Shown here one piece after another: positions 12,010 through 44,814 of a stretch of 47,740 bases of DNA; the first letter of the stretch is position 1, and the number at the start of each line of letters is the position of its first letter. A program made the position numbers and the translations under genes. The stretch lies in contig KE561067.1 in the NCBI GenBank assembly GCA_000442015.1, positions 62,001 to 109,740 on the forward strand, in the 5' to 3' direction. Origin of the DNA: Rozella allomycis CSF55. Lineage: Eukaryota. The notes beneath the pieces are model-generated. The model searched no databases and had not been told where the DNA came from. It saw nothing but the letters and a program-made list of their open reading frames with translations.

Positions 12010-12079
12010 GTCTTATTGGTGGCGCAAGCACATTTATTAATGGTTAAAGTTTTGATAAACTTTCTTCCTTCAGATTTGA

Positions 12080-14132: not shown

Positions 14133-15128
14133 ATGAAAGATCGAAGTTCTGAATTTTTCGCTGCAATAGAATCACAAAAACAGAGAATATCACCTAATAT
14201 TTCAGAGCCGCTTAATCGAAATAGGCATCAGGCGTCGGCTTTTGCACAAATGGCTGGGCAAATAGGGAAAGAAATAGCTTTTGTTTCAACTAAATTAGAG
14301 AAGTTTGCTATTCGTAAGCAATTTATTAAATTAACGAATAGTTGTGAGGAATAAAAGTTCATTCGAAGATAGATCCGCAGAAATCCAAGAATTAACTTCC
14401 ACTGTGAAACAAGACATTGCAAGATTAAATCAACAAATTGCAGCTCTTCAAAGTTATCAGAAGGGACAAGGGAAAGCACCAAACGATCAATACGAACAGC
14501 ATCATTCATCTATGGTGGTCTCATTGCAATCCAAATTAGCATCAACATCTTCCACATTTACTGATATTCTAGAGCAACGAACAATAGTACTGATGCATAT
14601 ATTTGTTGACATAGTCAATGAAAGGGCAAAGGGAAAGACGGTCACAGTTTACCTCACCCAACGACATGTTTTCTCAGCGTAAAGCTCAATTCGCCTTTTA
14701 ATTAAGCGTTAAGCCGAAGGTCTCAAAGCGAAGATTTAGTGATTGACATGGGTGAGGCGGCGTCATTTCAACAGACTCAACTTGTTCAGCAGGTACCGAT
14801 TCTATGCTTCTCAAAAAGGCACGTTCGAATCAATATTTAGAAGCACGGTCGGAAGCTNATATAGAATCAACTATTGCAGAGCTGGGAGGAATATTTCAGC
14901 AGCTGTCAAGGATGGTCATGGAACAAGGCGATACAGTGCAAAGGTAACATTAATTTGTAACCGAAGATAAGAATCGACGCGGACATTGAAAATATGCAAT
15001 TCAATGTTCAACAGGGTGAACAACAATTATTGAGATATTTACAAAATATTTCATCCAACAGATGGCTAATGTTTCGAATTTTTGCAATCATAATTCTATT
15101 CTTTGTTTTATTTGTATCATTTTCATAA
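14133..15128 (+). CDS. SED5: Syntaxin-5/Sed5 Qa-SNARE (5 introns; N at 14858)
   Basis: N-terminal KDRSSEF motif, FEDRSAEIQELT..KQD, SNARE IESTIAELGGIFQQL..MV.EQG..VQRID, SSNRWL and a C-terminal TM helix. Confidence 0.95.
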
Positions 15129-19960: not shown

Positions 19961-20974
19961 TCAATGGCACGAGGTTTGTTTGTCGGCTTCTGCCACCTTG
20001 TAACGTCCAAACACAAAGAATCCAGTCACGGCGCCAACGATTATTGCCGTACATAAAAATCCATTATATGTCATAAATACCATCATTAAGAAGAAAGCAT
20101 AAAACGTATGGACACCATGCAGTAGGGATCTTATCGCCTGTTGCTTCCATGACCACGGACAAGAGTCGCATGAATTGTTTCTCTAAAACCAAAGAAATAT
20201 ATGATACTTGATGTTATTATCATACATGCGCCTCAGTAACCCAAACGCCTCAAATAGCACCGCTAAAAGAAGAATTGCAATGGTAGAGACGGCAAGTGAA
20301 GTATCAGAATGTACTGTCCACCACTCAAAGAAAACATTGTCAATTCTTGAATCCCAGTTCCAATACATCTAAATGGAGTGGAATCCAGGACTTTACTTTC
20401 ATCATGTGTTCCATGGGCATGTTTTGACTGTTATCTTCCATGCCATGATCCATTACGGCTTTCTTTCCNTTGTTTGTCGGCTTCTGCCACCTTGTAACGT
20501 CCAAACACAAAGAATCCAGTCACGGCGCCAACGATTATTGCCGTACATAAAAATCCATTATATGTCATAAATACCATCATTAAGAAGAAAGCATAAAACG
20601 TATGGACACCATGCAGTAGGGATCTTATCGCCTGTTGCTTCCATGACCACGGACAAGAGTCGCATGAATTGTTTCTCTACAACCAAAGAAATATATGATA
20701 CTTGATGTTATTATCATACATGCGCCTCAGTAACCCAAACGCCTCAAATAGCACCGCTAAAAGAAGAATTGCAATGGTAGAGACGGCAAGTGAAGTATCA
20801 GAATGTACTGTCCACCACTCAAAGAAAACATTGTCAATTCTTGAATCCCAGTTCCAATACATCTAAATGGAGTGGAATCCAGGACTTTACTTTCATCATG
20901 TGTTCCATGGGCATGTTTTGACTGTTATCTTCCATGCCATGATCCATTACGGCTTTCTTTCCTCCACAACACAT
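19961..20974 (-). CDS. Ctr copper transporter; one gene represented twice across contig join N20469
   Basis: Met/His-rich N-terminus, MYWNW, MMVFMTYNG (MxxxM), GAVTG and C-terminal SCH. The left copy lacks the start and the right copy lacks the stop. Confidence 0.9.
19976..20962. other. Assembly overlap of about 494 nt duplicated around N20469
   Basis: Near-identical copies abut the N; one substitution seen, in an intron. Confidence 0.85.
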
Positions 20975-21072
20975 TTTCCTCTTTTGGAGGGGCGCAGTAA
21001 ATAATAACGATTCTAGATTGAAAAAGATAATAAGTAGAATGCCAAAAATCTATTTTATTTATCAAAAATTCT

Positions 21073-21714
21073 TTATGTAGTTCCGTGAACCTTTTTTAAA
21101 TGTACATTCAGAGCACTTTTTTGTGTAAATCTTCTGTCACACTGCGTACAAGGGTATGGCCTTTCACCTACTTTGAATGGAACGCCAAATTTACCTGTAT
21201 GAGTTCTCAAATGAGCAACTAAATATGGTCTCTTTGCGAATCTTTGTTCACAACCTGGATGTGTGCATTTAAACCGGCGTTCGTTAGCATGTGTTCTTAA
21301 ATGAGCTAACAATTGCGATTTCCTAACACCTCTAAAGTCACACCCTTGATAATAGCATTTCAATGAATTGATGTTTTCATTAGTGAATAGGCTATATTGA
21401 TATCGTGATTGATCAATATCTGATTGATTGTTATGTGAGATATCTCTAGTTATCTCATTTAATCTTTCCATTATTTTGGATAAGGAAAAAGATATTTCAC
21501 CCAGCCAAATCCTATTTTCATTGTCTATTGTTGTTATCGTTTCTACTAGCGAAGACGTTAGAGAACTATACATTGTATTTATAGACTCCATAAATATAGG
21601 TGTTAGTGTGGACGAAGAATGGTCGATTTCACGTAGTAGCCTTCTGATAAACAAACGTGTTTGAGATTTATATTCTTGGATATTTGCAGAGTGATTATAG
21701 AGAGTGCTGTTCAT
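21073..21714 (-). CDS. C2H2 zinc-finger protein with 3 fingers (27-nt in-frame intron at 21168-21194)
   Basis: CxxxxC..HxxxH fingers; the HTGERPY linker is restored by splicing. Confidence 0.9.
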   Translation of the reverse strand: MNSTLYNHSANIQEYKSQTRLFIRRLLREIDHSSSTLTPIFMESINTMYSSLTSSLVETITTIDNENRIWLGEISFSLSKIMERLNEITRDISHNNQSDIDQSRYQYSLFTNENINSLKCYYQGCDFRGVRKSQLLAHLRTHANERRFKCTHPGCEQRFAKRPYLVAHLRTHTGKFGVPFKVGERPYPCTQCDRRFTQKSALNVHLKKVHGTT

Positions 21715-21987
21715 GGTCTCGAACGTGTATCCAAGTGTATAAAATGACCAGGGTTTATGTGTTCTAGACCATTAGTAGATCTTGAGAACTGGATAACCTG
21801 TGCGCCTATAAACTTACATAGACATAATCATATAATTTTTTAATAAGCGTGGCTACTTAAAATATATAAAACTATGGTCGTAGCGGCACATTATAAGCCA
21901 TAGATGGTGACTGTTTATTAATTCATTAAAAAACATAACTTAGCCTAATAAATTCATTTTATTGATTAGCAAAAATATTATTTATTG

Positions 21988-22972
21988 TTAATTTTGTTTG
22001 GTATGCATTTGTTGAGGCTGGGGAATCGCTGAATTTATCAATCTGAAAAGACTCTGAAGTAAAATAAGAGATTCATTAGCCAATGCGATTATTTGATGGG
22101 AATGCTTAACAAAACGCTTGGAATTATTTGATTCATCATATGATTCTGAAGTTATTGCACTCTTTTCGCGGTTAGAATAATTATGTTACCCATCGCCCAG
22201 GTAATGAGAGAACAAAAGAACGAATCATTGAATTAACAGTTTGGGGTAAAAAGGAAGAACAAGATGAAAGCATTTCTAATACTTTCGATAAAGTTTGCAC
22301 AATTTCTTGTTTCATTCTATTCGTAATCTGATGTACTCCGGCAAAAAATTCCTTGTTCGCTTGAATGAAAGCATCAGTCCACTCATCGAATGTAGTTTTT
22401 ATACTTATTTGGGCATCTGAAAATGCTGACCTAAGTGCGACAATGTTGTTATTGATTGTATCCTGTGATTCCTATATTTTATACAAATATTTTGTTTACC
22501 TGCAAGTAATCAAGGACACGGAATAGTTCCACGGACTGCTTTTCAAACTCTATTAATTATTTCAGTTCATTTACTTTATCCAGTTGTTTACAAGCAAATG
22601 AATCGAGATTGGAAGTTCCTATGGTTTTTAAAACTGGTTGACAAACATATTTCATGCCGGATTCTACTCTTTCAGCACCATACTATGACTGAGTAGATCT
22701 TTTCTAATTACCTTGACAAAGGCACTATTGTTTTTAGACTGATTGTAAAATTGGCTAATGGAATGCACTAATGGATAAGTAGCGACTCTTGATAGAAAAG
22801 ATTCGTTTTCTTTTCGATTATGAGGTCCAAGTTGCCCTGGGGATGCAGGCCTTGTTGAGTTTGAGGATGTAGATAAACGAAATTCAACAGAGGAGCAAGG
22901 CGATAATTCTGAAGTTGAATCACAAGCTAGAGCTAGCAAATCAATTCCATTCATTTCGGAAAAGGCGTCCAT
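21988..22972 (-). CDS. OPI1: Opi1-family transcriptional repressor (4 introns)
   Basis: FLSRVATYPLV..YNQSK.NS.FVKYGAE.VES, FACKQLDK, LDYLQ, KQEIVQTL.KV, IRSFVLSLPGRW and ALANESL motifs. Start could be 22954, 22972 or 23014. Confidence 0.85.
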
Positions 22973-22983
22973 TAAACAATTGA

Positions 22984-22989
22984 CACGTG
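22984..22989. promoter_or_regulatory. CACGTG E-box just upstream of the OPI1 start codons
   Basis: Lies between the bHLH stop (23027) and OPI1 ATG 22972. Confidence 0.35.
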
Positions 22990-23026
22990 GCTGAGGTGAT
23001 ACAATCACAAGCATTGCATTGTATAT

Positions 23027-23620
23027 CTATGAAATAGAATTTATTGAATTCAATTCTGATAAAATACTTTCTAGGCATTTGGATCGTTCAATAAGCCACT
23101 TTACATAAACAACAGCTTTTAGTGAGGAAGACAGAAAAATTACTTTGAAATAATACTTTTGGTTTTGTTCGAGCGCCATGAAATCCTTCAAATGAGATCA
23201 GAGCAGATAATTGTTCATACGCCTCCTTGATATTCTTTCTTCGTCGTTTCTCGCTTTCTATATGACTTGCTCTTTTTGGAAATTTGTTGCGAGCCTTTTT
23301 ATTCACGGTAAATTGATGAGGATGACTAATATTGGGATTTGTTTGCACTCTTATTAACAATATCAATAGCTACCTTGTTCCAGTGAAACGAATGAAACTT
23401 TTTCTGGAATAGTACCGCGTGGAGACCTTTCAAACTCCTTTCCTGTGACTAATTTTAATTCTAGATTTTCTGCATCATGCTGATCTTGAGCGTTAATTGA
23501 GTAGTCAAGGTGAAGATAATCATTGCTTACAAAAAGATCATCGCATGATCTCATATCAATAATATTTTGCATAAACTCTGATAAAAAACATTGCTCTTGA
23601 GGTGAAAACAACTGCGACAT
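23027..23620 (-). CDS. Ino2/Ino4-like bHLH transcription factor (2 introns)
   Basis: RASHIESEKRRRKNIKEAYEQLSALI...KPKVLFQTVVYVKWL; N-terminal LFSPQEQCFLSEFM helix. Confidence 0.8.
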
Positions 23621-23635
23621 GGATGGCTGAAATTA

Positions 23636-23706
23636 CACGTGAAATTGAAATTTCCAGTCCAATGTTGTCATATTCAATCTGATATAGATTTATTGAAATT
23701 CACGTG
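23636..23706. promoter_or_regulatory. Two inverted UASINO/ICRE-like E-boxes upstream of the bHLH gene (CACGTGAAAT at 23636-23645 on +; CACGTGAATT at 23697-23706 on -)
   Basis: One and two mismatches respectively to the yeast UASINO consensus CATGTGAAAT. Confidence 0.5.
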
Positions 23707-23945
23707 GTAAGCACAATTAGGTTTTGGGAATGTGCTTGTTAATGCCTATTCCTTTGCTGAGCCAATATTTTAGCAAAAAATACCAACGAATATTTGCTAA
23801 ATTACTGAATCGATGACTTCATTTTTACCATTTAGATTTAGTATTTGTTTAATGTTTAAAATAAAATATTGCCCTTGTTGCACCGCGGAATTAATAAAAT
23901 CAATGTTTTTAATTGAATTTGTAAATTTCGATTGGTTGATTATCC

Positions 23946-25156
23946 ATGAGGTTCAAGTCTGCAGTGATTGGAGCAGGGCCTACCGGCATTTGCGCAGTAG
24001 GACATTTGTTAGATTTAAGGCTGTACCCGATTCTTTGGATTGATCCTTGTTTCAATTCGGGTCGGCTATCAAGCTATGAAAATGTAAAATGCAATTTCTG
24101 TGTGAATAGGTTCCAAGCAATACTAAAGTAAAACTATTCATAGAGTTTGCCTTAAATTGCAACACTTTCAAAGAGATAGCAAGTCAAAATGATGATGTTC
24201 TAAAGGCTCTGTTGGCAATGGATCAGGATTCTGGCTGTAATTTAAGTCTCGCAGTGGGCATGACAAATAAATTAACCCAAGGAATGCAAAATTTTCATTC
24301 AAAAAAGGTTACTATGATAAAAGGTACCAAACAATAACCACTGACAAAGGAAATGTCAGATCGATGAATTTTAGTGACATAGTAAGTTAATTTATACTTT
24401 TATTAAAAGTGGTGCATTGAACTCGAAGGATCTGGGGAAAAACACTATTCAGACTCAACTATTCTTGCAACTGGTTCTCAACCACGAGAATCACGCCAAT
24501 TCCCATCAGAAACTCAACATGAAATAATTCCTATTCATTTAGACGTTGCTCTTGATCCTGGAAGGCTAAGTCAGATAATAACCAAGGATGACAATGTGGC
24601 TGTTGTTGGGTCAAGCCATTCCGCCATTTTGGTCTTAAAAAACTTATCACAGAATACATCCTGCAAAAGCATTTTAAATTTTTATAGGGAAGAATTAAAA
24701 TTTGCAGAGTACAAAGATGGTTGGATCCTTTATGACAACACAGGCTTGAAGGGTCAGGCTGCAACGTGGGCCAGGAACGAATTGTCCAAGGTACAAAAAA
24801 TTAAAAGAATAAAACTTCCAAAAGAGAAGAACAAAGAAGAAGAAGTTTATTTGGCACATTTAAGAGGCTGCACAAAAATCATCTACGCAATTGGTTTCGA
24901 AAGGAATCCTTTGCCAATAATTTCAGTTAATGATAGAGTTTGTCGAGAAATAAGTTATAATTCTAAAAACGGGCAGATGAGCGATGAAAATGGACCATTG
25001 GATAACTGTTTTGGTTTCGGCATTGCATTTCCTGAGAAAACAATAGACCCTATGGGAAATGTGGAATACGCAGTTGGTTTATATAAATTTACTCGGTACA
25101 TGAAAAATATTTTCCCAGTCATATTTAAACCGCTTTTAGATAAATTGAATAAATAA
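23946..25156 (+). CDS. FAD-dependent pyridine nucleotide-disulfide oxidoreductase-like protein (3 introns)
   Basis: VIGAGPTG, VPSNTKV, ILATGS.P, VVGSSHSA, WILYDNTGLKG, YAIGF and FGFGIAFPE. Confidence 0.9.
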
Positions 25157-25201
25157 ACACTAAAAATATTCTTTTCACTTTACTCAGCCACTTTGTTTTT
25201 T

Positions 25202-26411
25202 ATGACCCAAGCGCATTCAGTTCTAGTCGGAATATCTTTAGGCACTTATTCTTGCTCTGTGAGTCATTTCAAGGATGGCCACCCTGAAATCATCCCAAAT
25301 GAAGATGGCGATCGTTTTATTCCTTCCGTTATTACATTTACAGAAGATACTATAGTAAATTAATATTCCATTTTTAAAATAGCTTGTAGGGACCCAAGCA
25401 AAAATCCAAGCGTTTAAAAATCCAAGAACTACGATATGTGATTTTATTGGAGTTCCATTCGTCGACTTTGAAAAAAACAAATCCTTTGACAAGGAGAGTG
25501 AAAAGTTCGAATTAGGAGAAAATTTTTACTCTTTTAAAGAGCTTTTGAGAATATATTTATCGACCTTGAAAGTTTCAGCTGAAACTTACCTCGGAAACAC
25601 AATTACCGGGGTTGTCTTGTCTATTCCGTTTTCTTTGTCTAAAGAAGAGCGACTGGTTTATTTAGATGCTGCAAAAGAAGCTTCACTTAATGTCATTCAG
25701 CTACTTGATGACTCATCTAGTTCAATGTACCACGTCATAAACAAATATGCTCCAGAAAAGAATGAAGTGAAGGCGTTAGTTGTGGATATTGGTTATTCTA
25801 GCTTGAAATTAAGCACTTTTCACTCAAAAGATGGTTTACTTGTAACTCCATCTCAAATCCAACACACGGATTTTGGGTCGTCAAGTTTGACAAGGGTATT
25901 ATATAACCATTTTTCAACTGAATTTAAAAGGAAAACCGGGATTGACATTAATGATTACAAGAAGTCTGTGATAAAAATGAAGAATGCAATAGAGAAAACT
26001 AAAATGTCTTTGTCAAATGCTGATGTTTCCAATTGCTTTGTTGAATCATTGGCGGAGGGTGTTGACTTTTCGTCAACTATCAATAGAAATAAATTCGAAT
26101 TCATGTCAGAGTCGTTTTTTAACGGCTTCAAAACTGCTATCGTGCAATCCCTGAACTCTTTTCCTGTAGATATGGTAATATTGACTGGAGCTTCTGCAAG
26201 AATTCCAAAAATTCAATTAATAGCCAAGAATATTTGTGCTAGTGCTACTGTTATTGTTTCACCTGAACCAGAAGCGGACAGCGTGAATGGCGCAGCCACT
26301 CAAGCTCAATTGTTCAAAAATCTCTTTGATTTTCAATTTAAAGAAGATGACGTACTCGGATTAAATGAAGAAGAATGCATTTTGGAAAATGGGTTATATA
26401 AAATCAAATAA
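25202..26411 (+). CDS. SSZ1: Atypical Hsp70 (Ssz1/HSPA14-like), nucleotide-binding domain only (1 intron)
   Basis: VGISLG, PNEDGDRFIPS, VGTQAK, VVDIG, FVESLAEGVDFSSTINR and GASARIPKIQ; ends shortly after the NBD. Confidence 0.8.
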
Positions 26412-26446
26412 ACGTGTCATTAGTAATTTTCACATTTAGTTTTTCA

Positions 26447-27899
26447 ATGTGGATAATCTTTTTTATCCTTATCATGGTTATCCTGCTTGGAAGACTCTTC
26501 AGGACTAAGAAGGTCGTCTTTTTCCATCCCTTTTGTATGTCGTTTGGTGGTGGTGAACGTGTTTTGTATACGTGGATGAAGTTTTTGAAAAATGATAAAG
26601 AAATAATGATTTTAACCGGAGAGAAATCAATAGATATAATGAAAATCAGGGTAAGTTTTTACCTTGTTGAAAATAGGAACGATTTGATATTGATTTGTTN
26701 AATAGGAACGTTTTGATATTGATTTGTTAAACTACCCGATAAAAGTTGTTTCATTGCACACAAGAAGATTATTGGATCCCCTCTTGTAATAATTTATGAT
26801 GATAGTCACAGATTTCCTATAGCAACTTTATTTTTCCAAATTTTAGGTTCTTTAATCATAGGTTTGGATTGTTGCGCCAAATTACTTTTCAAAAGTCCTG
26901 AAGTTCTAGTAGATACAACGGGGTGCGCTTTCATCTACCCAATAATTAAATTGTTCCTTGGTTGTAAAATTGTATCCTACGTACATTACCCTTTCATAAG
27001 GTAAAAATTGGTTGGTAAAATGAGAGTTCCGATATGCTTCAAATGGTTTCAAAAAGGGAATCAAATTATAACAACAAAAATTATATCACTAATAACAGTG
27101 CATTGACACAAGTTAAACTATATTACTACAAAATTCTATCTTTTGTATATTGTCTATGTGGTTCATTTGCTGATGAAATCCTCGTGAACTCAACGTGGAC
27201 ACACAATCATATCATCGAATTATGGCAAAACCCCGAAAAGACTCACATTGTTTACCCCCCATGCGGCATTGAAAAACTAATAAACATTGATATAGTAAAG
27301 CCAAGAAATCCTATAATACTATCTATCGGGCAATTTAGGTATTATTTTGATAAAATTTAAATAAGAAAGGAAAAGAACCATCAGTTGCAAATAGAGGCCT
27401 TTGCAAAATCTAATGCCAGGTCTACGCATAGGTTGATATTAGTCGGCGGTTGCAGGAATGAAGAAGATTATAGTCGCGTCTGTGAGTTAAAATCATTAGC
27501 GAACATTTTAAATGTATCAGAGAGAGTAGAATTTAAAGTGAACGTGAGCTTTGATGAACTGTACAATCTCCTTACCCTTGCAGACATTGGAATTCATACA
27601 ATGCAAGATGAGCATTTTGGAATATGCGTTGTTGAATACATGGTATACTTTGCATAAATACAATTTAGGCTGCGGGTCTTATTCCCATCGCTCATAACTC
27701 AGGTGGCCCCAAATTGGACATTGTCGATGAAAAATGTGGATTTTTAGCTAAAAATGCTGAAGAATATTCGAATTCTATTAATGCCATCCTTTCAATGTCA
27801 ATTAGGAAAAAGCAAATGTACCGAGAAAACGCACGATTGAAGATTGAGCAAACTTTTTCAGAAAGTCAATTCGCCAATAATATAGAATGCTTATTTTAA
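26447..27899 (+). CDS. ALG11: Alpha-1,2-mannosyltransferase Alg11 (5 introns; N26700 overlap)
   Basis: FFHPFC..GGGERVL, YVHYP.ISSDML, NSTWT.NHI, VYPPC, EHFGICVVEYMAAG and HNSGGPKLDIV. Confidence 0.95.
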
Positions 27900-27971
27900 T
27901 AGTAAATATACTTGTTTATGGCAATTTTTGTTATTTTTTCTTTTAATACGCTTGGTGTGGCTAGGTTTAAA

Positions 27972-29304
<1,333 letters not shown>

Positions 29305-29505
29305 AAATAAAAAAACTTTTCTGCATTTTAGCAATAACAATGAATGCCAACCATGCATTATCAGGCTTCAGCTAATGTTCACTAGAACCGACGTATCCTA
29401 CGAAGCGAAAACTTCAAAATAGACCAAAATGCATATTATTTTGCTAGAGAATTTATTGCCTTCTCTGTAAATGACTGATAAATGCATTGCCTTGTCTATC
29501 GAATA

Positions 29506-30563
29506 CTAGTTTGTGTATGGTTCAAGTGTTTTCATCGCTGTAGAATATGCAAAGAATGTAACCGCGTTAGTTGGAAATGCTCTCACTATCGTTGCATTTA
29601 GTCCTCTAAAGAAAAAGTTTATGCCATGATTCTTATAATGATCCTTAAAAACAGCCCATGTATTTCTATAACGAAAAGGTTGATCGAAATGTTCCGACTG
29701 CATGACTGTCTTTACTACGTCAAACGGATAAGTTGTTATCCAACTGCAAATACCCGCCATTCCACCTGCAAACATTAAAAGCATTGGATTTAACTGAGAT
29801 GAGTCTCCGTCTTTCGAAAGTTTTCTGCAAATGTACTCGTAAGATGAAAAATAGGCACCGTAACTTGGCGTTTCACGTAAAATAGTAGCCGATATTCCTC
29901 TAAAACATCCTCGAAACCCTTTAACGCGATAGATTCTAGACAAACAATTAAATGTCCCTTTATATGCATTTCTGTCTCCTTTTTTGACTTGATTCTGAAG
30001 CTGAATTTTGGCTAATTCTGTTGGCCCAGAAATGATGCTGTTCAAAAATCCTGATCCAGCACCGGCAACAAAAATTTGCTCTAAAGAAGGTTTCCTTTCA
30101 TTTCACTATAAAGTTATTACTCTTTGGGATCATTTAATTGGTAATTTAGGATAGATCCATAGACTCCAAAAAGGAATGAGTTGACAAGAGTCACACCAAT
30201 CATTGGCGCTGATATTCCTTTTAAAAGACCTAGAGCCAAAAAATGAAAATAAATCGTTTTACTGATTCTTCTTTGACAATCGTTTTAAAACAATGAATGG
30301 TTCCTTTATACTTTGGGTTTACAACATCTTGACTCTGTAAACGGACCTATTAGATAAGATAAAAAGTATTTAAGTATTTACTTTGACGGTATCAAAAGGT
30401 TGACCTGCTAATACACCTCCAAGACCTTTCATTAGGATATTGCATTGTTACCGGCGAATGTTCCAGAAATAAAGTTAGCTATGCTTGGATGAATGAATCC
30501 TTGTACATTGTAATCATCAGTTGGATTAATTTGCCCCGTATCTAAATTTGATGAATCTGCCAT
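29506..30563 (-). CDS. Mitochondrial carrier, SLC25A29/45 / Ymc-like (4 introns; GT-TG intron at 30237-30262)
   Basis: Three Px[DE]xxK repeats (PFDTVKVRLQ, PTELAKIQLQ, PFDVVKT); RETPSYG and RAFPTN. Confidence 0.92.
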
Positions 30564-30826
30564 TCTCCAATTAGCATTCACTTTAGGTTTTATGGGCCTT
30601 GACCAGGCTTGACAAAAATAGAACGCATGTTTTATGAGATGAACTTCAGTTCAAAAATTAAAGGCATTATCGTGCAGTGACATATATATATATATAGCGG
30701 AATTTGATGCACGAAATGGGGGCTTTAGGAATTCAACTTGAAGTTCAATTATCTAGACCATGCAAGTTCAAAGGGGATTCAACATTAAGCGTATAATAAT
30801 TGTTAAAGAAGAAATTTAAACTAAAT

Positions 30827-33800
30827 TTATTTTTGAATTGGCTGCAGATTATTTAATATCAGAGTGGCTAATGCAGAACCAATTACAAAGTTGCCTTCAT
30901 TTGTTATGTCCTTTAAAGTTGAAATTAAGGTAGAATCACACGGAAAATTTGGATTTTGCCATTGTTCAGCCATTTTTAGTAAAAGTTTTAGTAAATTGAT
31001 TCTAATATTTGGATGATTCTTAAGTTTGTTAATTTTCCCGATGAAAGACTCAATAACGGAAGGAATTGTCAATGAGAAACATATGTCTCTTGAGTCTGTT
31101 ATTAATTTAAACAAAGAGTTGGTTATTGATTCTAAACTCAACGTCGCATAATTGCACAAATCTATTAGAAAAGTTAGGTTTTCATTCAACAGCAACGTTT
31201 TCTCCACATAATCCCTATCTTCATTGAACCAAGAGCAAATGGCTTCTAAAGAATTTGGAGCCCAATATTCATCTTCAAGCATTCCAATTAGAAACAAAAG
31301 CAAATCATTTTCCTTTAAAAGTGGTCGACATTGGCTAGTTCGGGCCATTTCACAAAGAATTGGAATTGTTAGCGATTTTCTACTTCCACCTCCAACAAAA
31401 GTTAGTTTCATTAATTCAGGAATTACATTATTGGATGTAAATCTAAAAATTCTGCTAGAGTTTAACCTGAAGAGCTTTAGGCCAATCAACAAGGCTTGAT
31501 TTTTTATTTCCTCTTATAAAAAACAATAATTCTGTACACTTATAAACGCATAATTTGGCTCCTTTAAACAATCCGCCAGAATCTCAATGTAGTCCAAATG
31601 TTCCAGTAAAGGATGTGAAATTTCCAAATCACATATGTTCCTAAGTACTTTAATCCAGAGAAGAATGTGTTGGTTGCTTAGTTCATAGAATAGTAATTGA
31701 AAATCTATTTATTACGAAACCATATATCATACTAAATAATACAGCATTCGTGCAGAACTTTTCTTTAGTACCATGATCTGCATTTGACAAAAGCAATAAT
31801 ATTGATAAAGCATCCTTGCATATTCCTTGTGATATTTCATCATCCTTAATGCTAAAATCATTTATTATTTCAATAAATCGAAGAATGTGCTGTTCACAGG
31901 ACAATATCCTACAAATGTCATTTTTAGAGAAATGGTGTTTGAAAAGGTTGCCAATGCAGAAAATGCATCGTGCGATAACGCCACGATCGGATGAATTCAA
32001 AACATCTAACATGACTTTTACCCCATCACAGGCAACAAATGTTGCAACTATTTCTTTAAATGAACAAATAATTTCAAGTGAAATGGAAAATGTTTCTAAA
32101 CATTCGTAAAATGGGAATCTTAAAANACATTCGTAAAATGGGAACCTTAAAAGAATAGGAATTCCTCCTAATTTTGAAAACTTGTCGATGTATTCAAAAT
32201 CCTTTCTAACAATCAAAAATTAAAATAATATTATTATATTACTTGATTAAATAAGTTCAAAACGTGTTCTGATCTATAATGTTCCAGGGCCTGGATAAAG
32301 TCAAAATAACCTTTAGATTTGATAAACGGTAAACGGGCTATTGGATACTTTCTAATCCCAGAAACCTAAATAATAATAAGCCAAATATAATACCAAATTT
32401 TCACAGTGCAACTTTATTTGACTTTGTTCATATCGTCCACATTGTAAAAGGGAATCCCAAGACATCTCCAGCCATTTTATTTCTTCTCTTTCTTCAATTG
32501 GCACTACTATGAAATCTTTAGACTCAAGCCTAATTAATTCCAACTCTGCCAGGTCATCAATTGAATCTGCAATCGATACTTTCATTTTGCTTATTTTTAA
32601 ATCCGCGTCATCATTTAGCTTAAATGCCAAATTATAATCTTCATTTTCATCCTCAATAGTAGAAGAAAAATTTATTTTATTAGGCGGACTGGAATTTTCA
32701 TTCTTAGACCCTTGCACAAATTTCAGTAACGTGGAAGCGTCCACGTCATCCCAATCGTCATCATCTCCTTTTATATCGCCTATCATACTAACGTTTTCAT
32801 CGATTAGTGACGATTGGACTATTTGTTTGGATACGTACTCCCCCTTTCGAACCACAGAACCCTCAGCAAATTCGCTATCATCGATAGAATTCACAAATTC
32901 ATCCAAGTGGCCCATGGCTGATTCAAAGTTTTCTTCATCATTAAGCATATGCTATATTTTTCGATTAAGATTATAGAATACCTTTTCATGGCCTTTTGTA
33001 ATCCATGGGTGACGTAGAAGCTTTGAGGCACTCACCCGCAAATTGACATCCTTTTGGAAAGTAAGCATCAGAAAATCTTTAAGAGCCTAAGTTTTAATCA
33101 ATTGGCATTTTGCTACATTAGATATTCCGTCTGGAAGCGGTGGATGCTCATCATTAACGATGCGATACAATGCTGCCATTGGAGACAGATGAAAGTATGG
33201 AGGTTGGCCTTGAATTAATTCAATAGTAGTGCAACCAACACTCCATATATCCGACCCAGTGTTAACACCTGATAATTCAATGACTTCAGGTGCCACTTAA
33301 TTTGATAGTATTTAGCTTTATTACTCCAATAAGGCGAGCCTATTATCATCGAGTCGTCTTGAGTGTCACTAAATCCCACGCTGACACCAAAATCTGCTAG
33401 TTTCACCCGACCATCTTTTGTCGTCAATATATTGGCTCCTTTTATATCTCTATGAATAACTCCTTGGTCGTGGAGAAAACAAAGCCCTTTAAGAACTTGC
33501 GATATATAAAAGCTAACCAATGATTCAGGAATTTTTCCAAACTTTTTACAAATTGTTACCAATGAACCATTTTCGCATAGCCTAACAATCAAAAAATGGC
33601 TCTTTACTCTAACATTATATTCAAGTATCCGTCTTCTTCTGAAGACCCGATATATTCCACAATGTTGTCATGTTTGAGCCGTTTTAACAACTCTATTTCA
33701 GCCTGTTCTAAAGCGTTAATGTTATTACTCTGATAGCTTCCAACTCTGATTTCTTCATGCTTTCGCATTTAACTTGTTTAATCGCTATACAGTTTCCCGT

Positions 33801-33937
33801 GTTAATATTAATGCATCGGTAGACAGTGGCAAATGCTCCCTTTCCCAAACAATCCCCAACTTGCTATCTTTTGGAGCATAATAAATAATTCTTACATATG
33901 ATTTACATATTATTGAACCGGCAGATGTTTTCTGCAT
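30827..33937 (-). CDS. CDC15: Cdc15/Cdc7/SepH mitotic exit and septation kinase with ARM-like C-terminus (10 introns; GT-TG intron at 32214-32242; N32126)
   Basis: [62 protein letters not shown] and FQKDVNLR; C-terminal GGIP block. Confidence 0.9.
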
Positions 33938-34111
33938 TAATAACAATGACTAATTGGTGGCGTAGTCATTAACATTAATTCTGAACTTACCTCGATCAAT
34001 AAGAAGCATAAGTGCATAGCAAGTTAAGAAATAAAATCTAGAATCTTGTTTTTTGCAAAAATGTTCATTCAAAAGGAAATATTCCAAACCTAAATTTTTT
34101 CGTGGCTTAGA

Positions 34112-35651
34112 ATGAATATTTACACGTCCGCTCTTCTTAGAGAAGCGTCCCCACCACCGCGTAAAAGGTTGGGGGATCATCAAAATACACCAATTCCAAA
34201 AAAAGTTCCGTTAGCGGTGGTTTCAGAAAAACCTACCAATGATGAAAGTCTCAATAATCTTATAGAGCAATACCAATATCACACAAAAAAACTTGATGAA
34301 ATTCTGACAAAAATCAGTCTCATTTTAGGCGGACACTCAGGACAGTCTATTCCACATCTTTCTGAATTCGATCAATCTTTCCTTGAAAACTTTGCAAGTC
34401 CTAACGATGATAACGGCCAAAATTTTATTCCAGAAATTTTAAGCTCGCCAAGGAAGGAAGACATTGATAATTTACATGACGATAAAACAGAAATTAACCA
34501 TGTTAGCCATATTTCAAACATTAACATCCACACGAAACAAAAAGTATTTTCTCGAAAACCAAGAGGGATTTACTGTAACCAAAATGGACCATTAATTGCA
34601 GCTTCAAGTCTGGATGGGACTGTTCAAGTTCATGATTACGAGAGTCAAAAGTAAAGACAAAATTAGCATTTCATAGATTGAACTCAACTTTTATCCCTTT
34701 TCCGGGCCATTGGGTAGAAATAATGACGTGGATACCCGCCTCAAATAAGGCTGTTCTGATATCTTCAACAAAAGATACAACTACTCCTTCCAATGTGTGT
34801 TTTGTCCCAGATATGGTAAAAAATATTCTTGAAAATACTCAGAGTTCATCAAATCCATCCACCATACCATTATCTGGGTCTTTAGAGCCAAAAGGGATTA
34901 TGGATATCGAAATTGACCCGAATATTTTTGCAGATAACTTTTCATTTTTTACTTGCTCGAAAGATAAATTAATTGTATATTTTTCTATATTTTTTTATCA
35001 AGATTCAATGGAAGGTCAACGAGGACCTAAAAACTGAAACGAAGGTCGTTCATAACATACATACGACCTTTATAAATAGTCTTAGACTTAAAGACCGAGA
35101 TTTAATTTCTGGAGGGTCCGATTTCAGATTCGTGATTTGGAATTTGGACCGATCAGAAAAATCGTTAGAGTTAAAAATGCCAGGGAGAGTCAATCATGTC
35201 ATGGTTAATTCCAATCAGTCAAATCTTTCACTTTCTTGGTAGAAATTTCACTTAATGCTTACTTAGTTTATCTTTGAAAAACAACCAATTTCGATTATTT
35301 GATCATAGACAACATAAGATTGTAAACGAATTTGGTTGGGAGGAAGTAAAGAGACTTTGTACATAATATAGAGTGATAATTTATCAAAGTATATTTATCC
35401 TTCTTGGCACCAAAATGGTCACATTGTGGCTTGCGGTACAAGCACACTTGAAAGGCCATGTGTGAACATTTGGGATATCAGATTTCTAAAAGATGGTAAA
35501 CCATCGCAACACATAATGTGTCATAGTAATGAAATACATTTAGTCCCAAAAAGGTAAACGAATTAACCAAACATTGTGGCTTCCGAACGGAAAGTCCCTT
35601 GCTACGATTTCGTCAGATTGCTCTATGAGCTTTATTGACTATACCATTTGA
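34112..35651 (+). CDS. WD40-repeat protein (6 introns)
   Basis: SSLDGTVQ, SGGSD.RFVIWN, FRLFDHR, PSWH.NG..VACG, IWDIR and TISSD. Confidence 0.8.
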
Positions 35652-35677
35652 AGAATGGAATAAATATTTTTTTATTT

Positions 35678-36202
35678 TTAAACAAGTGCATCTGCATCTT
35701 TGCTTAATAGCCTATAATTGATAGTTTTGGATTTGGTATACACCATGTAGCAGATAGCTAAACCAGATGCACCTAATAGTGCAAGGGGAAGGCTCAAGCC
35801 CCACCAATCTTCTTCGTTGTTTTCAATGCTTTGACTTTCATCCTCTGATACGGCTTCAATGAATAATAAGTTCTCATCTTTATTTTTTCCAGGGACGTCA
35901 ACAAATATTGGAACTTTTTGATCTGTTTCAGGAATTTCTGTCGTATTCTCCTCATATTTATCAACTTCATTCCCTTTCTGATCAACAATTACGTGCTTAT
36001 CAACATGTTCGATTACTTCTACATTTCCTTGATCATCGCTTATGATGTTGTCAGTTTTGGTCACCATATCCACATAAGATTGGCCAGATATTTGAATGGG
36101 TTTGTTTTCAGTTGTGGTAACTTTTGTAAGAATATTTGGATGAAGCCGACAAAAATTAGTGCTGAAAAACAATACAATCAAAAGGAAACCAGATAGATAC
36201 AT
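35678..36202 (-). CDS. Type I single-pass membrane protein with acidic ectodomain
   Basis: Signal peptide, acidic middle region, one TM helix and a short tail containing YRLL. Confidence 0.7.
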   Translation of the reverse strand: MYLSGFLLIVLFFSTNFCRLHPNILTKVTTTENKPIQISGQSYVDMVTKTDNIISDDQGNVEVIEHVDKHVIVDQKGNEVDKYEENTTEIPETDQKVPIFVDVPGKNKDENLLFIEAVSEDESQSIENNEEDWWGLSLPLALLGASGLAICYMVYTKSKTINYRLLSKDADALV

Positions 36203-36351
36203 ATGTTACAAAGGAGGTGTCTTCTACTATTTATTACACACAATGTCCAATTAGAAGGGCGCGTAGCTAAAAATAGGATTTCCCTACTATAATTAATCCA
36301 TTTGTTTTTATATGTGTTAACTCATTCTAATGATTAATGGATTTTTTATTG

Positions 36352-37975
36352 TTAAATTAAGATAGTGTCAAATAGCTGAAACCTTCGCGTATTTTGAATG
36401 GAATAATAATGAATGCAACCCTTTAGCCTCTTTAATGGATTATTGCTAGGATTATGAATTACGCCATTGTCATCAATAATCAAGCCCAGTTTATTGACAG
36501 CTTTATTTTTCAAGACATTGTATGAAGCAGAGTTCTTTAACAAATTTACTGGAGTTAAACCTGTAAAAAATGATTCCTTAAATTATTAATTTATGGGATT
36601 TACCGCTTGATCGCCGTATATAATTACAGGTAGAAATCTTCTGTCAGAATATAGAATGAGGCAAAACTTAAACTTATATTTAACTTTGTCCTCATGAGAA
36701 ATTTCACCGCACTTTGCACACTTCAAGTGGTCATCAGGTCCCTTAATGGTACCAAAGCTAGATAAATTTTAATGCATTGAATACCACTGTTGACAGAAGG
36801 GACAAACAGGTACAACCCAATCAACCAGTCGTTCCGGAAACGCACCTGCGATGGCCCCTTCAAAATGAAAAATTCCGAATACATTATTTAAAGTCTCTAT
36901 GCTCTTGGTTGAGAGAATTTGGGAATCCTGGCAATTACAGTCTATCTTTGTGCAAAGGTTTGAGGTTTTAAATGGCATTTTCACCTCTCGAGATAGTGCT
37001 GGTAGTGGATTTTGAAGCGAGCGCCTATACGATAAATTTAACCAACTTACGTGAGGATATTTTTAGCCAACGGGTGATCTGAGTCAAGAATTTTAAATAT
37101 TTCTTCAAATGGTTTACATACACTGCCTCTTAAAGAAAATATATATTTTGGTTCATCTTCTCTATTTTTCTTTACGAACAAATGCGAAATTTGGTAGACT
37201 TTGCCAAATTGAAGGGCGCTACATTGTTCAACGTGCCTATCCCAGGCAATTAATAAACTAGTGGGTGTACTGTTATTTTGAAAACTGCGATGGGTGAAAA
37301 TACGAAAGTCTTACCAAAAGTCTGGGTTTTCTGTATAATCTGTTACTTCAAGGATCAGCATGTTCTCCCGGGGTAAATCCTTTATTTTTAAGACTCTGAC
37401 CACTAAAGACACGCTTGTCATATTTTGATTGGCGTTTTTAATCTCAATAAAATCAAAAGTCTTTGGTTCAATGCAGGAAGGTAGTTCTGAATCTGTTTTT
37501 GCAAGTACAATAGCTTGCTCGATGTTAAATTGATCGCTGGCAGCAGGCGTCGATAGATCTCGAATAGGCAATGCATTATGAAAAATATTTTCTATCTCAT
37601 CGTAAACAAAACACCCAAAATCCCCCAAAGACATTCCTTTCAAGTTAGAATTCGTACTTATAACCTAATTTGTTACTTTATCTATCATATCCCATACTTT
37701 AAACTTTGTCAATACAACAACTTTTGCATTTATTTCTTCGCTAGGAGGAAAGTATGCCAAAGAACTCTTAAAGATACGTGCGTCAAAAAAGATGTTTGGT
37801 TTCTTCAAGTCTGTCAAAGTTATTGTCATCATGAAATCTATTATCACACAACGCTTGTGTTACCAGCTCCTTTACATTTTGTGGGACTTAGAATACATTG
37901 CACCCTCCCAATAATATTAATCACCTGCTTTACGAGAGTTTCGTTAATTTCTGAAGGCGAAAGTAGAATAGTCAT
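36352..37975 (-). CDS. POT1: Protection of telomeres 1 (OB1, OB2 and C-terminal OB with C4 zinc ribbon; 6 introns)
   Basis: INIIGRV...[30 protein letters not shown]...CAKC, AESFF.GL.P and CIHYY...FQLFDT. Confidence 0.85.
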
Positions 37976-37998
37976 TTAGAAAAAATCGGAAAGGCATC

Positions 37999-38897
37999 AT
38001 GATTATTTTAAATTGTTTAATGCAAGCTAGTAATGCCATGAAGAAAAAGTCAGCTTTATGGCCCGTGTTACTATGTATTGCTTTGATGAATGTTCCACTA
38101 GTCATTTGGTACATCTACATATCATTGAAGGAGCATTTTGTTTATTTGGGGCTAGTGTGTTATTTTCATACTTATGCGATAATATCAATGACTAGAGTAT
38201 TTCTGACCAATCCAGGCTATTATCCAAAGTTGGATATTGATTATTTCGAACATGTTTATAATCCAAATCCCACATATCCAGTCTCTTCTACTGATGTGTT
38301 TCCAAGCCAGATAGAACTCGAGCTAAAGGGAGTTCGGGTCATTCAGAAGTTTTGCAATACGTGTAAATTTTACAGACCTTTAAGATGTACTCATTGTTCA
38401 ATTTGCGATAGATGTGTTGGTAAAAAAAGTAGAGGTGCCTAAATAAATTAGATAGGTTTGACCATCATTGCCCATGGCTAGGGAATTGCATTGGCAGAAG
38501 AAATTATAGATTCTTCTTATCGTTTTTATGCTCATGCACAATGCTGTTAGTTGTAGTTTTTGTTAGCTCGGTAACGTTGCTAGTTAGGAACTTGAGCCTT
38601 GGGGAATCTGTTTCGTATGATCCATCAAGCATTGCAGGTATATTTCTAATTTCATACAGCTTTATTATTTTTTGGTCAGTGGGTGGCCTATTTGGCTTCC
38701 ATTGTTTCCTCGCGTCTAGAGATATGACAACAAATGAACAAGTACAAACTTTATAATCGAATGAAAAGATAAAATGGTCTATAGATAAAAGATTTAATGC
38801 AAATCAGCATCCTCCTAATTCATATGGAGGTCACCTGTTTTCAAATTGTTTTCATGTTATTTTCTCTGCACCCTGGAATAAAAAGTATGCATCGTAA
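37999..38897 (+). CDS. DHHC palmitoyltransferase, Erf2-like (2 introns)
   Basis: [48 protein letters not shown] and TTNE. Start may be 38020 or 38038. Confidence 0.92.
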
Positions 38898-38996
38898 AAA
38901 TTGTTTAATAAAATCAGCATTAAAATTAATATAAGTCTTAGCTCCTTTATTTGAATATATCTAGGTTATTTCATACTTAATTGTTTTATCAACGGT

Positions 38997-39545
38997 CTAT
39001 ATCACATGTATGACATGGCCCTGAGAAATCAAGTGTTCAACATCAGTCCTCCTAACAAAATGTTGCGAATCTTTTTCAAGAGTAATAACTCCGCTGGTTG
39101 TTAGCAAATTTCCACAATCTTTCAAAACTCTTATCTGAATAAACAAGTCTTTCGGGGGTACTAATGAAGCTCTTATGTCTAAAAATTTATACTTGGATAT
39201 CATTTTAGCCATTAAGTTTGAATAGCTTTGCAAAAAGTTGGATTCATGAGTGTTCGATTGCTGCATAACCTGATTTACTGCTCGACTACCACCTTGCCAG
39301 AACAAGCTTTGAAGCATTTGCAATCTATGTTCGTGATATAAGATCAGAGATTGTTTTCCTCTTTCAATTAAAGATTTGTAAATGTCAATATGTTTTGAAA
39401 ATGAGTCTGTATTGGCAATATCTTGTGCGGACGAATAATGTGCGCTTATTTCTTGAAGTTGTTGACGTACTGCTAGTTCATTATATGGGGAGTATATCGC
39501 ACCCTTATTTCTTTTTATTTCTTTAACTAATGATGAAGCTTGCAT
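38997..39545 (-). CDS. PSF1: GINS complex subunit Psf1
   Basis: PYNE..VR, YHEHRL, ESNFLQSY, PPKDLFIQIRVLKDCG and SQHFVRRTDVEHLISQG. An upstream in-frame ATG at 39596 is also possible. Confidence 0.93.
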   Translation of the reverse strand: MQASSLVKEIKRNKGAIYSPYNELAVRQQLQEISAHYSSAQDIANTDSFSKHIDIYKSLIERGKQSLILYHEHRLQMLQSLFWQGGSRAVNQVMQQSNTHESNFLQSYSNLMAKMISKYKFLDIRASLVPPKDLFIQIRVLKDCGNLLTTSGVITLEKDSQHFVRRTDVEHLISQGHVIHVI

Positions 39546-39594
39546 TTTTCCGTTCAAGAAAATTCGCAAATTAGGGTGTTTGTTTATATTTGCC

Positions 39595-42500
39595 ATGAAT
39601 GACTTTTACCAGGAAAAAATAATAGAGGGTGAATTTAAATGGACAAAATTTCACACTATATACAAAAGATTAGCATGTTGCAAAAGTGTTTTACTTTCCG
39701 TCTACGATGAACAAGGGAATGAAATAAAGAAAATCAGTAAAGAAAAGGATATTAAATATGTGGAATGGCACCCCCAACGCAAATTGATGGCATATGCCAG
39801 CGGTGATGATGTATATGTTTGGAATGAAACTGAAGATCGAGAAAATGTCAAAAAAGTACAGGGTAATAATATCGTTTGTTGGAATGCAATCGGAAATAAT
39901 ATTTTGATTGGAAAAGAGGTTAAATCATTTAATATAAATTAACGTTTAGGATGGAAGCGTTGTTTGTTTTAATGTAGAGGTTAGTGGAAAGATGGGCAAA
40001 GAGAGGTTGTTGTATGAAAACAAAGGGAAAAAGAGAAGAATAAATAAATTATATTCTGCGGAAGGGGATATAATTGTAATAATTTACGATGGAGATATTG
40101 TGATAATTAGCAAGGAAGACATTGTTGAGAGTGATGTACAGGGGAAGATAAAGGAATCTTTCCTAAAAGAAAATAAGTTGGTAGTTGTTTGCGAAGATTT
40201 GTTTGTTAATAAATATGATTTAGAAAGTTTTGAAAAGATTTCAATAAAATTGAGTAACAAGGGAAGAGTTGAATGTGTAACATGGATTTGTGGCAAAGAA
40301 GGAGTAAAAATGATAACGAGTGATGAAAAAAATGCGATAAAAATTTGGGATATTGAAGGATTGGGATGTGAAGAGATTGAATTAAAAGAAGAGTTTAAAT
40401 CCAATAGAATCACATGTCTAAATAGTTTTCACTCGGATATTCTGGTAGGGACTGATTCTGGCCATATATTTAAAATTAAAGTCGGCAATCAAAAGAACGA
40501 TGAAATTATCGACAAGGATTTGAATAAAGACAATAAATGCCAACCAACTGAAAAATTTCATGAACTACAATTGACTGAATTTTCTGGCGGAGGTTTCATT
40601 GAGCAAATTTTCTTTCTAAAAGAAATGATTGGAATAAAGTTGAAGAACTTTGTCAAGATATTAAGTTTGAAAAAACGATTAATTAGAAAAGAAAACGAAC
40701 AGGCTTTAATACAAAGTGATTTAAATAAAATAATTCTACTTGATAATGAGCGAAAATTTGAGATAAAAGAAGACTTTGAAATTAAGGAATTTTCAGGTTC
40801 TAAAAATAGATTTGCGGTTTCAAATCTCGAAGACATAAAAATTTACGAAGATTTTAAACAAAAAATTAGTTTAAAAGAGAACCATCAAAGAATTTATATG
40901 ATTAATGAGGCAAGTGACACAGATAATGAAAAATCAGACGGGAAAGGTAAAATTAACAAGTCTTCAATTATAGGAAAGAAAAATCCACAATCCTTCTTGG
41001 CAATCGTTGATTTTAATTCTTTAAAGATATTTGATTGGAAAAAGGGAGAAACAATATCTGCATTGGCTTTTGAAGAAATTATTTTAGAATCTATATGTTT
41101 TAACGACAAAATAATCTTAATAAATTCAAATAGAGAATTGATTTTAATTAAATTCGATAAAATTGTGGAGACAATGAAATTGGATTTCAATCATGAAATT
41201 TATCAAATTGAAATGAACGAAAATTTCGTTGGCATCTCTTCCAGTAAAAGCATTACTTTTATTTATAAAGAAAACCAATTATTTTTATTAAATTTAAACA
41301 CTTTTAAATATTCCAGCTTCTCAATAAACTCTGATTATTTTGTATTCGATTCGAAATTCCCCAATTTGATGCTTATCCAGTCCACAAATATAGTACAAAT
41401 CTTAAACTTTTATAAATTAAAGGTTTCTTTTGGATTTATTACAAATATACTGGAATTAGAGATATTTTCAACCAGATATATTTATGAAATTTCGCGATCT
41501 ACTAATGAAATTTCTGAGTCTGAAAATGCTCCCGCGAACGCTACAAAAACTTTTCAAATAATGTTTTCTAATTTTAATTATTTTAGTATATTAGTTTTAG
41601 AAAACAATGATTTTTGTTTGAAGAGGATAGATTTCAATTTTGACTTTTCACTGGATTTTCTATATGGCATTTTAATCAACGGCAAATTCTTCAAAGTTGA
41701 AGATGAAAAAATTCTTAAGATTATGGCAAAGTTCTATTTAAATAATTTTGAAAAGAATTATGAAATACTGAAAGAGTGTTTGATTAAGTTAAAGAAACCA
41801 ATTTTCATTCTTACTGGAGACCTTTCAAGGGACAAAATGATCATAAAATCTATTCTTGGTATTCCCAACGAATCCGAAAGTAATATTATCGAGGATAAAG
41901 GCAATATCCCTGTTATAAACGAAAAATGCCATTTTAACATCGAAAAACTACCCAATGACAAGAATACAATGCCTAAAAACAATAAAATAGATATCGAAAC
42001 TAATTTTGCGACACCATATTTTCAAGGTGACGACGAATTGGATCGTGAAATTTGCAATCTGAAAAATTCCATGGAAAACATTCAATTACTTAAAAATTCA
42101 TTTTCAAATAAATCCTGTTTACTTCTTAATTATCCAGAAGCTTACAGAATCGTAGGCAGGTTGGAATTTGATGGAAAAATTAACAATAATGACTTTCCTT
42201 CCCTTTCATGCTTTGAAACCTCAAATTCGTTCAACTTGTTCAAAGGGCAATTGTTGGAATCTGTAGGCTTAATATCGGAAGCTGATATGTACTACAAAAA
42301 GTCTAATAATTACTTTTATTCAAATAAACTATCAAATTCTGTATTCAATATCGATCAAATCGATGACAAAATGACCCTTTTTCATGTCGCTAAATCTTTG
42401 CAGACCTCAAATGTAAATTCCTAATTATATCTTCAAGAGGTTAATCAATCTATAAAGGCTCTTACCAAAGCTGGCTGCTTTAGATATGCGTCTCTCCTAG

Positions 42501-44796: not shown

Positions 44797-44814
44797 TGTA
44801 CCCTGGTTGACAAA

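Follow-up and report, generated by a model that had tools for sequence, protein, structure and literature searches.

Ultra-short introns have been described in Paramecium, in the nucleomorph of Bigelowiella natans and in dicyemids (PMC2483917), as well as in myxobolid myxozoans (PMC13644364). According to PMC2483917, lineages that combine short introns with high intron density carry GT(A) as their only 5′ signal and no branch signature; branch-to-AG distances of 3–5 nucleotides (nt) are suggested there for two Candida species, and Encephalitozoon cuniculi is presented as intron-poor, with strong motifs at the 5′ site and at the branch (CTAAYTT). In myxobolids and Dicyema, A residues shift away from the AG as introns lengthen, and these residues have been suggested to mark the branch point (PMC13644364). 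Here we analyze the introns in a 47.7-kb stretch of the Rozella allomycis CSF55 genome (GenBank assembly GCA_000442015.1, contig KE561067.1, forward-strand positions 62,001–109,740; 47,740 nt in total and hereafter the window), from which all of our counts derive and within which all coordinates are given. We find that these introns stop sharply at a lower bound of 26 nt, that an adenosine at position 23 follows their 5′ end, and that AG dinucleotides before position 26 are as a rule left unused, while in four longer introns a later AG that directly follows an A is skipped as well.

Microsporidia are almost devoid of introns, and Rozella, their sister, is rich in them. How short an intron can be reports directly on spliceosome geometry, and each lineage in which introns have shrunk independently supplies another measurement. 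PMC8476143 gives an intron density of ~2.5 per kb for Rozella, which places it in the intron-dense, weak-motif class. Rozella S23 introns are described as ~30 nt long and without microsporidian motifs in PMC6349667, and a passage of PMC8042348 reports median intron lengths of 29 to 197 bp across a set of fungi that includes Rozella, the species at 29 being unnamed there. Our literature search, which extended neither to the Rozella genome paper nor to the PMC13644364 supplements and Table S7 in PMC8042348, turned up only passing remarks of this kind and nothing on a 26-nt wall or on how Rozella chooses its acceptors. A preliminary description of the window had proposed a steric ruler acting from the 5′ splice site, on the basis of six introns that end in AGAG.

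A sharp lower bound on intron length

Intron lengths were surveyed with three kinds of scan, none of which included a length prior. A codon-score gene-chaining scan by dynamic programming, in which introns of 8–70 nt were allowed, returned 10, 8, 7, 3, 3 and 2 introns at 26, 27, 28, 29, 30 and 31 nt, respectively, and zero at 18–25 nt. In an ORF-bridging scan, GTA..AG candidates joining two open reading frames (ORFs) of at least 30 codons each numbered 1 at 24 nt and 2 at 25 nt, and rose to 18, 21 and 11 at 26, 27 and 28 nt. Five decoy signal pairs gave 0–11 candidates per length with no peak, and ORF bridging with bare GT..AG was too noisy to use. The third kind of scan, gene chaining with weight matrices for the intron ends, used three different intron penalties. 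With the middle one (−19), it produced 83 introns, including 18, 13, 15, 6, 3 and 3 at 26–31 nt, zero at 23–25 nt and 4 that were shorter; the 62 introns common to all three penalties included 14, 12, 10, 4, 3 and 2 at 26–31 nt and 3 below 26 nt.

The curated list began with 90 candidates, comprising scan introns of 26–45 nt at the weakest of the three penalties together with manual additions. Eleven were removed: a false kinase "intron" at 33760–33790, an artefact at 26710–26745 of an assembly join at 26700, seven in doubtful or intergenic stretches, and the second copies of two duplicated introns of a Ctr copper-transporter gene (CTR). Five were added by motif (33864–33895, 33703–33728, 44647–44677, 44746–44774 and 44501–44526). 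The resulting set contains 84 introns, with 24, 17, 18, 7, 4, 4 and 2 at 26, 27, 28, 29, 30, 31 and 32 nt and eight of 34–45 nt. Their median length is 28 nt, the most frequent length is the floor value, and 76/84 introns measure 26–32 nt. None of the 84 is shorter than 26 nt, in a set built on ORF-based models, which are blind to stop-free introns with lengths divisible by 3 (e.g., 24 nt) and to introns in untranslated regions (UTRs). Together, the scans and the curated set support a sharp lower bound of 26 nt among the introns of the window.

That no intron falls below 26 nt had been claimed in the preliminary description, and within the window this proved true, each shorter candidate examined being better read in another way. 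Among the three introns below 26 nt that the weight-matrix scan found at all penalties, that of 12 nt (37665–37676) was set aside for a 33-nt in-frame alternative, that of 17 nt joins two genes, and that of 22 nt (6954–6975) probably marks the end of a gene. The candidate at 389–413 lies in a 5′ UTR, before an ATG at 418. The true intron is one of 28 nt at 10496–10523 in place of 10533–10542, one of 32 nt that keeps a Cx4DHHC motif in place of 38429–38451, one of 29 nt at 22683–22711 in place of 22664/22667–22683, and one of 31 nt at 44647–44677 in place of 44647–44670. The candidates at 44466–44482, 25195–25211, 12012–12031, 8720–8735 and 1862–1885 have non-GTA donors and stand in weak or intergenic stretches.

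Length differences between data sets were seen at two introns, both of which stay within 28–31 nt: 28854–28884 is 2 nt shorter in the contigs of X1 (site 28869), and 35239–35266 has one extra G in those of X1 and X2 (site 35258). Five short introns, of 26–31 nt, lie in an RPA2-like gene on the minus strand (43897–44800) with weak RPA_C and OB-fold matches; plus-strand scan models over the same interval are spurious.

An adenosine that follows the 5′ end

Composition was tabulated for the short introns, defined as those of 32 nt or less (n = 76), against an A background of 35.5% in intron interiors. Their layout is a 5′ GTA, a T-rich middle, an A-rich patch and then the AG. The GT and AG ends of all 84 introns are present by construction; the GTA start, found in 75/76 short introns, was not demanded by the gene-chaining scan. 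Position 23 from the 5′ end is A in 52 of the 76 (binomial P = 5.5e-9) and is the sole interior position to stand out, the next strongest being position 24, with A in 38/76. Apart from the 5′ GTAA, the A at positions 23 and −4, and the AG, the position tables show no position far from background.

We compared the two ends of the intron as reference points for this A. It occupies position 23 in 83%, 59%, 56% and 71% of introns of 26, 27, 28 and 29–32 nt, and position −4 in 83%, 53%, 61% and 29% of the same classes. In introns longer than 26 nt, A is found at position 23 in 32/52 (P = 1.2e-4) and at −4 in 25/52 (P = 0.04); in those of at least 28 nt, the corresponding figures are 22/35 (P = 9e-4) and 16/35 (P = 0.14). 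Since A at 23 holds in longer introns better than A at −4, the A follows the 5′ end. From this pattern we infer that the A at position 23 may be the branch adenosine. The proposed 5′ ruler thus gains from both the sharp 26-nt bound and the 5′-anchored A, but the part of it that made the floor the whole rule did not stand, as the acceptors described below indicate.

Skipped acceptors at AGAG 3′ ends

The introns from which the ruler had been proposed are the following, with positions counted from the first nucleotide of each intron.

20181..20207, minus strand: Ctr copper-transporter intron (CTR_a), 27 nt; TAG at 25 unused, GAG at 27 used
20675..20701, minus strand: second copy of the Ctr intron (CTR_b), which differs by a single T>G at position 22
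22548..22574, minus strand: intron of an Opi1-like gene (OPI1), 27 nt; TAG at 25 unused
23348..23373, minus strand: intron of a bHLH (INO2-like) gene, 26 nt; AAG at 24 unused, GAG at 26 used
27001..27026, plus strand: ALG11 intron, 26 nt; GAG at 24 unused, GAG at 26 used
31511..31537, minus strand: intron of a Cdc15-like kinase gene (CDC15), 27 nt; AAG at 25 unused
42413..42439, plus strand: IFT140 intron, 27 nt; AAG at 25 unused

All seven stretches start with GTA and end with AGAG on the strands given, and each is 26 or 27 nt long. For either choice of acceptor, we fused the open frame upstream of the intron to what follows the AG and counted the codons that remained open. In the order CTR_a, CTR_b, OPI1, bHLH, ALG11, CDC15 and IFT140, the distal AG left 73, 81, 22, 86, 111, 227 and 47 open codons; the proximal AG left 17, 17, 17, 15, 27, 2 and 5, and the unspliced sequence 8, 8, 5, 3, 1, 7 and 3. 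The AGAG observation is confirmed by these results: the sites are present as originally placed, and the frame is kept by the distal AG only (22–227 versus 2–27 codons).

Other in-frame acceptors lie only at 78 nt for CTR and only at 56 nt for ALG11. Further downstream acceptors at 36 or 39 nt in OPI1 are possible alternatives, IFT140 has one at 45 nt, and for the bHLH intron none was found within the 90 nt searched. A caveat applies to CDC15, where a GT lying 2 nt upstream (a GTGT donor), combined with the proximal AG, would also give a 27-nt intron in frame (S versus K). As to this choice of donor, the public protein P0002 maps with exactly the 27-nt gap originally proposed, and GTG donors occur in 0/76 of the short curated introns.

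Pfam matches on the flanking ORFs support the predicted gene names, with Ctr on either side of the CTR intron, HLH and INO2-bHLH at the bHLH gene, ALG11_N at ALG11 and Pkinase at CDC15; the Opi1 match, at 27.0 bits, lies under the curated cut-off of 29.7, and the TPR_IF140-IFT172 match at IFT140 is weak. At ALG11, the upstream ORF ends at position 142 of the ALG11_N profile and the downstream ORF starts at 143. These positions abut, which gives residue-level support to a 26-nt intron ending in the distal GAG. In 6/6 AGAG introns, the two CTR copies being counted once (see below), the proximal AG has its A at position 23 or 24, and in the CTR intron this A (position 24) is the sole A between positions 11 and 25 and hence the one candidate branch A close to the 3′ end.

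The AGAG cases had been considered special on the premise that a YAG acceptor beats GAG, and neither part of that argument was borne out. Position −3 of the 76 short introns is T in 34, A in 30, G in 8 and C in 4. With G making up 10.9% of intron interiors, GAG is neither favored nor avoided, and CAG is the rarest form. Position −4 is A in 45/76, and 4.7 AGAG ends would be expected if the bases at −4 and −3 were independent, compared with the 6 seen. Skipping of AGs is general: 62 unused AGs precede position 26 across 43/84 introns, and 11 introns have an unused AG at positions 20–25. GAG also serves as the acceptor with no AG ahead of it, at 2535–2561 and at 28373–28400, the latter followed by a Pfam TGT match that starts at the first residue past the intron. 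On composition, then, AGAG appears to be an ordinary by-product of an A-N-A-G 3′ end.

Acceptors passed over at position 26 or beyond

Four longer introns pass over an AG at position 26 or later with no frame ambiguity.

33864..33895, minus strand: first intron of the kinase gene, 32 nt; AAG at 28 skipped, TAG at 32 used
32202..32242, minus strand: kinase gene intron, 41 nt; TAG at 37 skipped, AAG at 41 used; the gap in P0002 is 41 nt
42829..42872, plus strand: IFT140 intron, 44 nt (or 47); AAG at 26 and 39 skipped
14679..14713, plus strand: intron of an unnamed gene, 35 nt; AAG at 28 skipped, AAG at 35 used; assigned by frame only

Each of these skipped AGs is immediately preceded by one or more A residues. 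The AG that is used lies 4–7 nt past a skipped one. The intron at 33864–33895 corresponds to the first CDC15 intron of the preliminary description, in which an AAG at 28 was said to be passed over for a TAG at 32; its boundaries restore the kinase glycine-loop motif, in agreement with that account. For 42829–42872, the downstream frame is set by the IFT140 TPR match, and positions 42870–42875 form a true TAGTAG (NAGNAG) tandem acceptor whose 44- and 47-nt forms are both in frame.

Overall, the first AG at or past position 26 is used by 77/84 curated introns, and by at most 80/84 if three in-frame ambiguities go to the shorter form. However, a 5′ floor is not a sufficient rule, as the four introns above go beyond it (28 to 32, 28 to 35, 37 to 41, and 26 and 39 to 44/47). 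These skips imply that closeness to the branch point counts, and not the floor alone. The strength of position −3 fails to account for them because the preferences run both ways, TAG being taken over AAG and AAG over TAG.

A model for acceptor choice and its alternatives

The reading we prefer, to which we assign a probability of about 55%, is that Rozella introns are genuine U2-type GT-AG introns that have collapsed to a narrow class of 26–31 nt, the floor of which results from a branch A near position 23 plus a 3-nt spacing. Removal of the introns restores the frame and the kinase, DHHC, UDG and RPA2 motifs, and P0002 maps with gaps of 27, 26, 30, 30, 28 and 41 nt. Under this model, the branch adenosine would be placed ~23 nt from the 5′ splice site, perhaps in the smallest lariat that this spliceosome can close, and the acceptor would be the first AG to have its G 3 nt or more past the branch A. 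An AG ending at 24 would contain the branch A and one ending at 25 would abut it, and neither would dock; the next AG, at 26 or 27, would be taken, giving a floor of 23 + 3 = 26. An AGAG end would simply be A-N-A-G with G as N. In longer introns the branch A would lie further downstream, and an AG directly after it would be skipped likewise. Closeness to the branch point would in this way account for both sets of unused AGs, those before position 26 and those at or past it, with the floor as the sum of an anchor and a minimal spacing.

A bolder form of the model would have the branch A chosen by a count of ~23 nt from the 5′ splice site, with no motif being read, would make the AG 3 nt on the tightest spacing proposed for any organism, and would have the same ruler arise independently in myxozoans and dicyemids. 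We put this form forward tentatively and regard it as doubtful.

Several observations weigh against the preferred reading. The curated introns come from ORF-based models of a single window, with some candidates removed by hand. The excess of A at position 23 is a statistical signal in A/T-rich sequence, and 24/76 short introns lack this A. At 14679–14713, the AAG at 28 is skipped despite A22 and A23; a simple rule of taking the earliest AG that is 3 nt or more past A23 does not hold there, except if A26 or A27 serves as the branch A. Moreover, a 3-nt spacing between branch and acceptor is at the extreme of anything suggested, and the RNA run X9, when compared with the window, gave only chance pieces of 18–34 nt.

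A pure length floor from the 5′ splice site, as in the preliminary description, would place any AG short of 26 nt sterically out of reach and leave any AG at 26 or beyond usable, with site strength deciding between them. The absence of shorter introns from the 84, the sharp step from 25 to 26 nt and the frequent use of the first AG at or past 26 (77/84, up to 80/84) are all as this account predicts. Yet it offers nothing for the four introns that skip such an AG in an unambiguous frame, where strength would have to favor TAG over AAG once and AAG over TAG once at a position with little preference, and we consider it unlikely. Branch-point proximity might also operate alone, the branch being selected through local sequence close to the 3′ end, with 26 nt representing two independent minimal spacings with no 5′ anchor. 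Yeast and mammals are well known to skip AGs near the branch point, and in the window skipped AGs lie 2–7 nt upstream of the used AG in introns from 26 to 44 nt. The A enrichment, however, tracks the 5′ end (in introns of at least 28 nt, 22/35 at position 23 with P = 9e-4, compared with 16/35 at −4 with P = 0.14), and the position tables, with no dedicated branch-site motif test made, show an enriched A only; an explanation with no 5′ anchor therefore seems to us quite improbable.

The floor could instead be apparent in productive messages only, if both AGs were used and the frameshifted products of the proximal AG were cleared by nonsense-mediated decay. All proximal AGs do lead to early stops, after 2–27 codons. 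Against this, productive use at 24–25 nt is seen in 0/84 introns compared with 24 introns of exactly 26 nt, and AGAG is not depleted (6 seen, 4.7 expected), giving no sign of selection against a competing site, so that we judge such double use very unlikely. Hardly credible, in our view, is that the "introns" are frameshift errors or products of gene modeling. Duplicated joins are present at assembly N positions, and gene-chaining errors such as 33760–33790 and 26710–26745 needed correction, but artefacts of this kind would not be expected to start with GTA in 75/76 cases, to peak in length where decoy signals do not, or to preserve Pfam continuity at ALG11 and a TGT match beginning right after 28373–28400; P0002 also maps with the same gaps, and the region is covered by DNA contigs of X1 and X2.

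If a branch adenosine near position 23 and a 3-nt spacing do set the floor, the 26-nt wall and the 5′-anchored A would show the ancestral state that preceded microsporidian intron loss. A ruler of the same kind arising independently in Rozella, myxozoans and dicyemids, if true, would suggest that spliceosomes share one physical lower limit.

Assembly joins, public gene models and other features of the window

A 494-bp tandem duplication (20187..20962) surrounds a single N at 20469 and yields the two CTR copies. Other N positions also fall in tandem duplications, at 26700 (29 nt), 28996 (27 nt), 32126 (27 nt), 46715 (112 nt) and 5654 (387 nt). DNA contigs of X1 are without 29 nt at 26683 and 27 nt at 28984, and those of X7 are without the 29 nt. 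These N-spanning duplications look like unmerged assembly joins, and by analogy with 26683 and 28984 the CTR duplication is most likely one as well. Given such a join, CTR_a and CTR_b are counted as one locus, as they were originally. Unmerged joins can create false frame breaks or false 27-nt "introns."

Second contigs of X1, at about a third to half of the depth, carry clusters of substitutions at 22677–22739, 27754–27882 and 29326–29363 and may represent another haplotype or a closely related paralogue. Upstream of the bHLH gene, at 23699–23829, 129 nt are skipped in contigs of X1 and X7, a difference from the window at the DNA level.

An 824-residue ORF and a 228-residue kinase exon each had one protein match at 100% identity, to the Rozella allomycis CSF55 proteins P0001 and P0002, respectively; both public models are predictions. 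P0001 (IFT140, 815 residues; 39787–42421) runs through the 27-nt intron and stops inside it, omitting downstream exons with IF140 TPR matches (42413–43860). Gene callers with a default minimum intron length mis-annotate the Rozella genome, and this public model is an example.

The gene content of the window, in which fungal Opi1 and an INO2-type bHLH occur alongside flagellar IFT140, fits Rozella. The INO2-type bHLH gene is directly upstream of the Opi1-like gene on the same strand (21990–23640, minus). In yeast, Opi1 is a repressor of the Ino2/Ino4 bHLH activator. A single transfer RNA gene, at 47565–47636 (66.5 bits), is the sole Rfam match in the window. The Blastocystis motif TGTTTGTT is not enriched in the window (7 matches, 5.0 expected), and a ciliate genetic code was rejected, stop-codon reassignment lengthening the ORFs of the window little.

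Comparison with known systems

Acceptor choice in these introns resembles second-step AG scanning in yeast and mammals, in which an AG too near the branch adenosine is ignored and the following AG is used. The minimal spacing between branch and AG usually quoted for those systems is roughly 10 nt. The ~3 nt proposed here for Rozella would be far below that value, and in the model it is distance from the 5′ splice site, in place of a motif, that seems to set the branch. The AGAG ends are also reminiscent of NAGNAG acceptors in presenting two adjacent AGs at one 3′ splice site. However, NAGNAG acceptors are 3 nt apart with both forms in frame, whereas at the six AGAG sites the pair is 2 nt apart, the choice shifts the frame and only one AG is productive by frame. 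Encephalitozoon cuniculi is similar in having introns of ~23–50 nt with a branch site near the 3′ AG, but it is intron-poor with strong motifs, whereas Rozella is intron-dense with weak ones.

There is also a likeness to the lineages of ultra-short introns. The A at position 23 follows the same pattern as the weakly conserved A patch of myxobolids and Dicyema. The mode in Rozella coincides with the floor, at 26 nt, and the medians reported for myxobolids are 22–27 nt. Rozellomycota, as parasites of the fungal lineage, are not among the exceptions named in the introduction of PMC13644364. Rozella shares with the ultra-short-intron lineages signals cut to GT(A) and AG with no apparent branch-site consensus, very narrow intron lengths with an abrupt lower edge, and high intron density, and is a new member, from the fungal lineage, of this known class.

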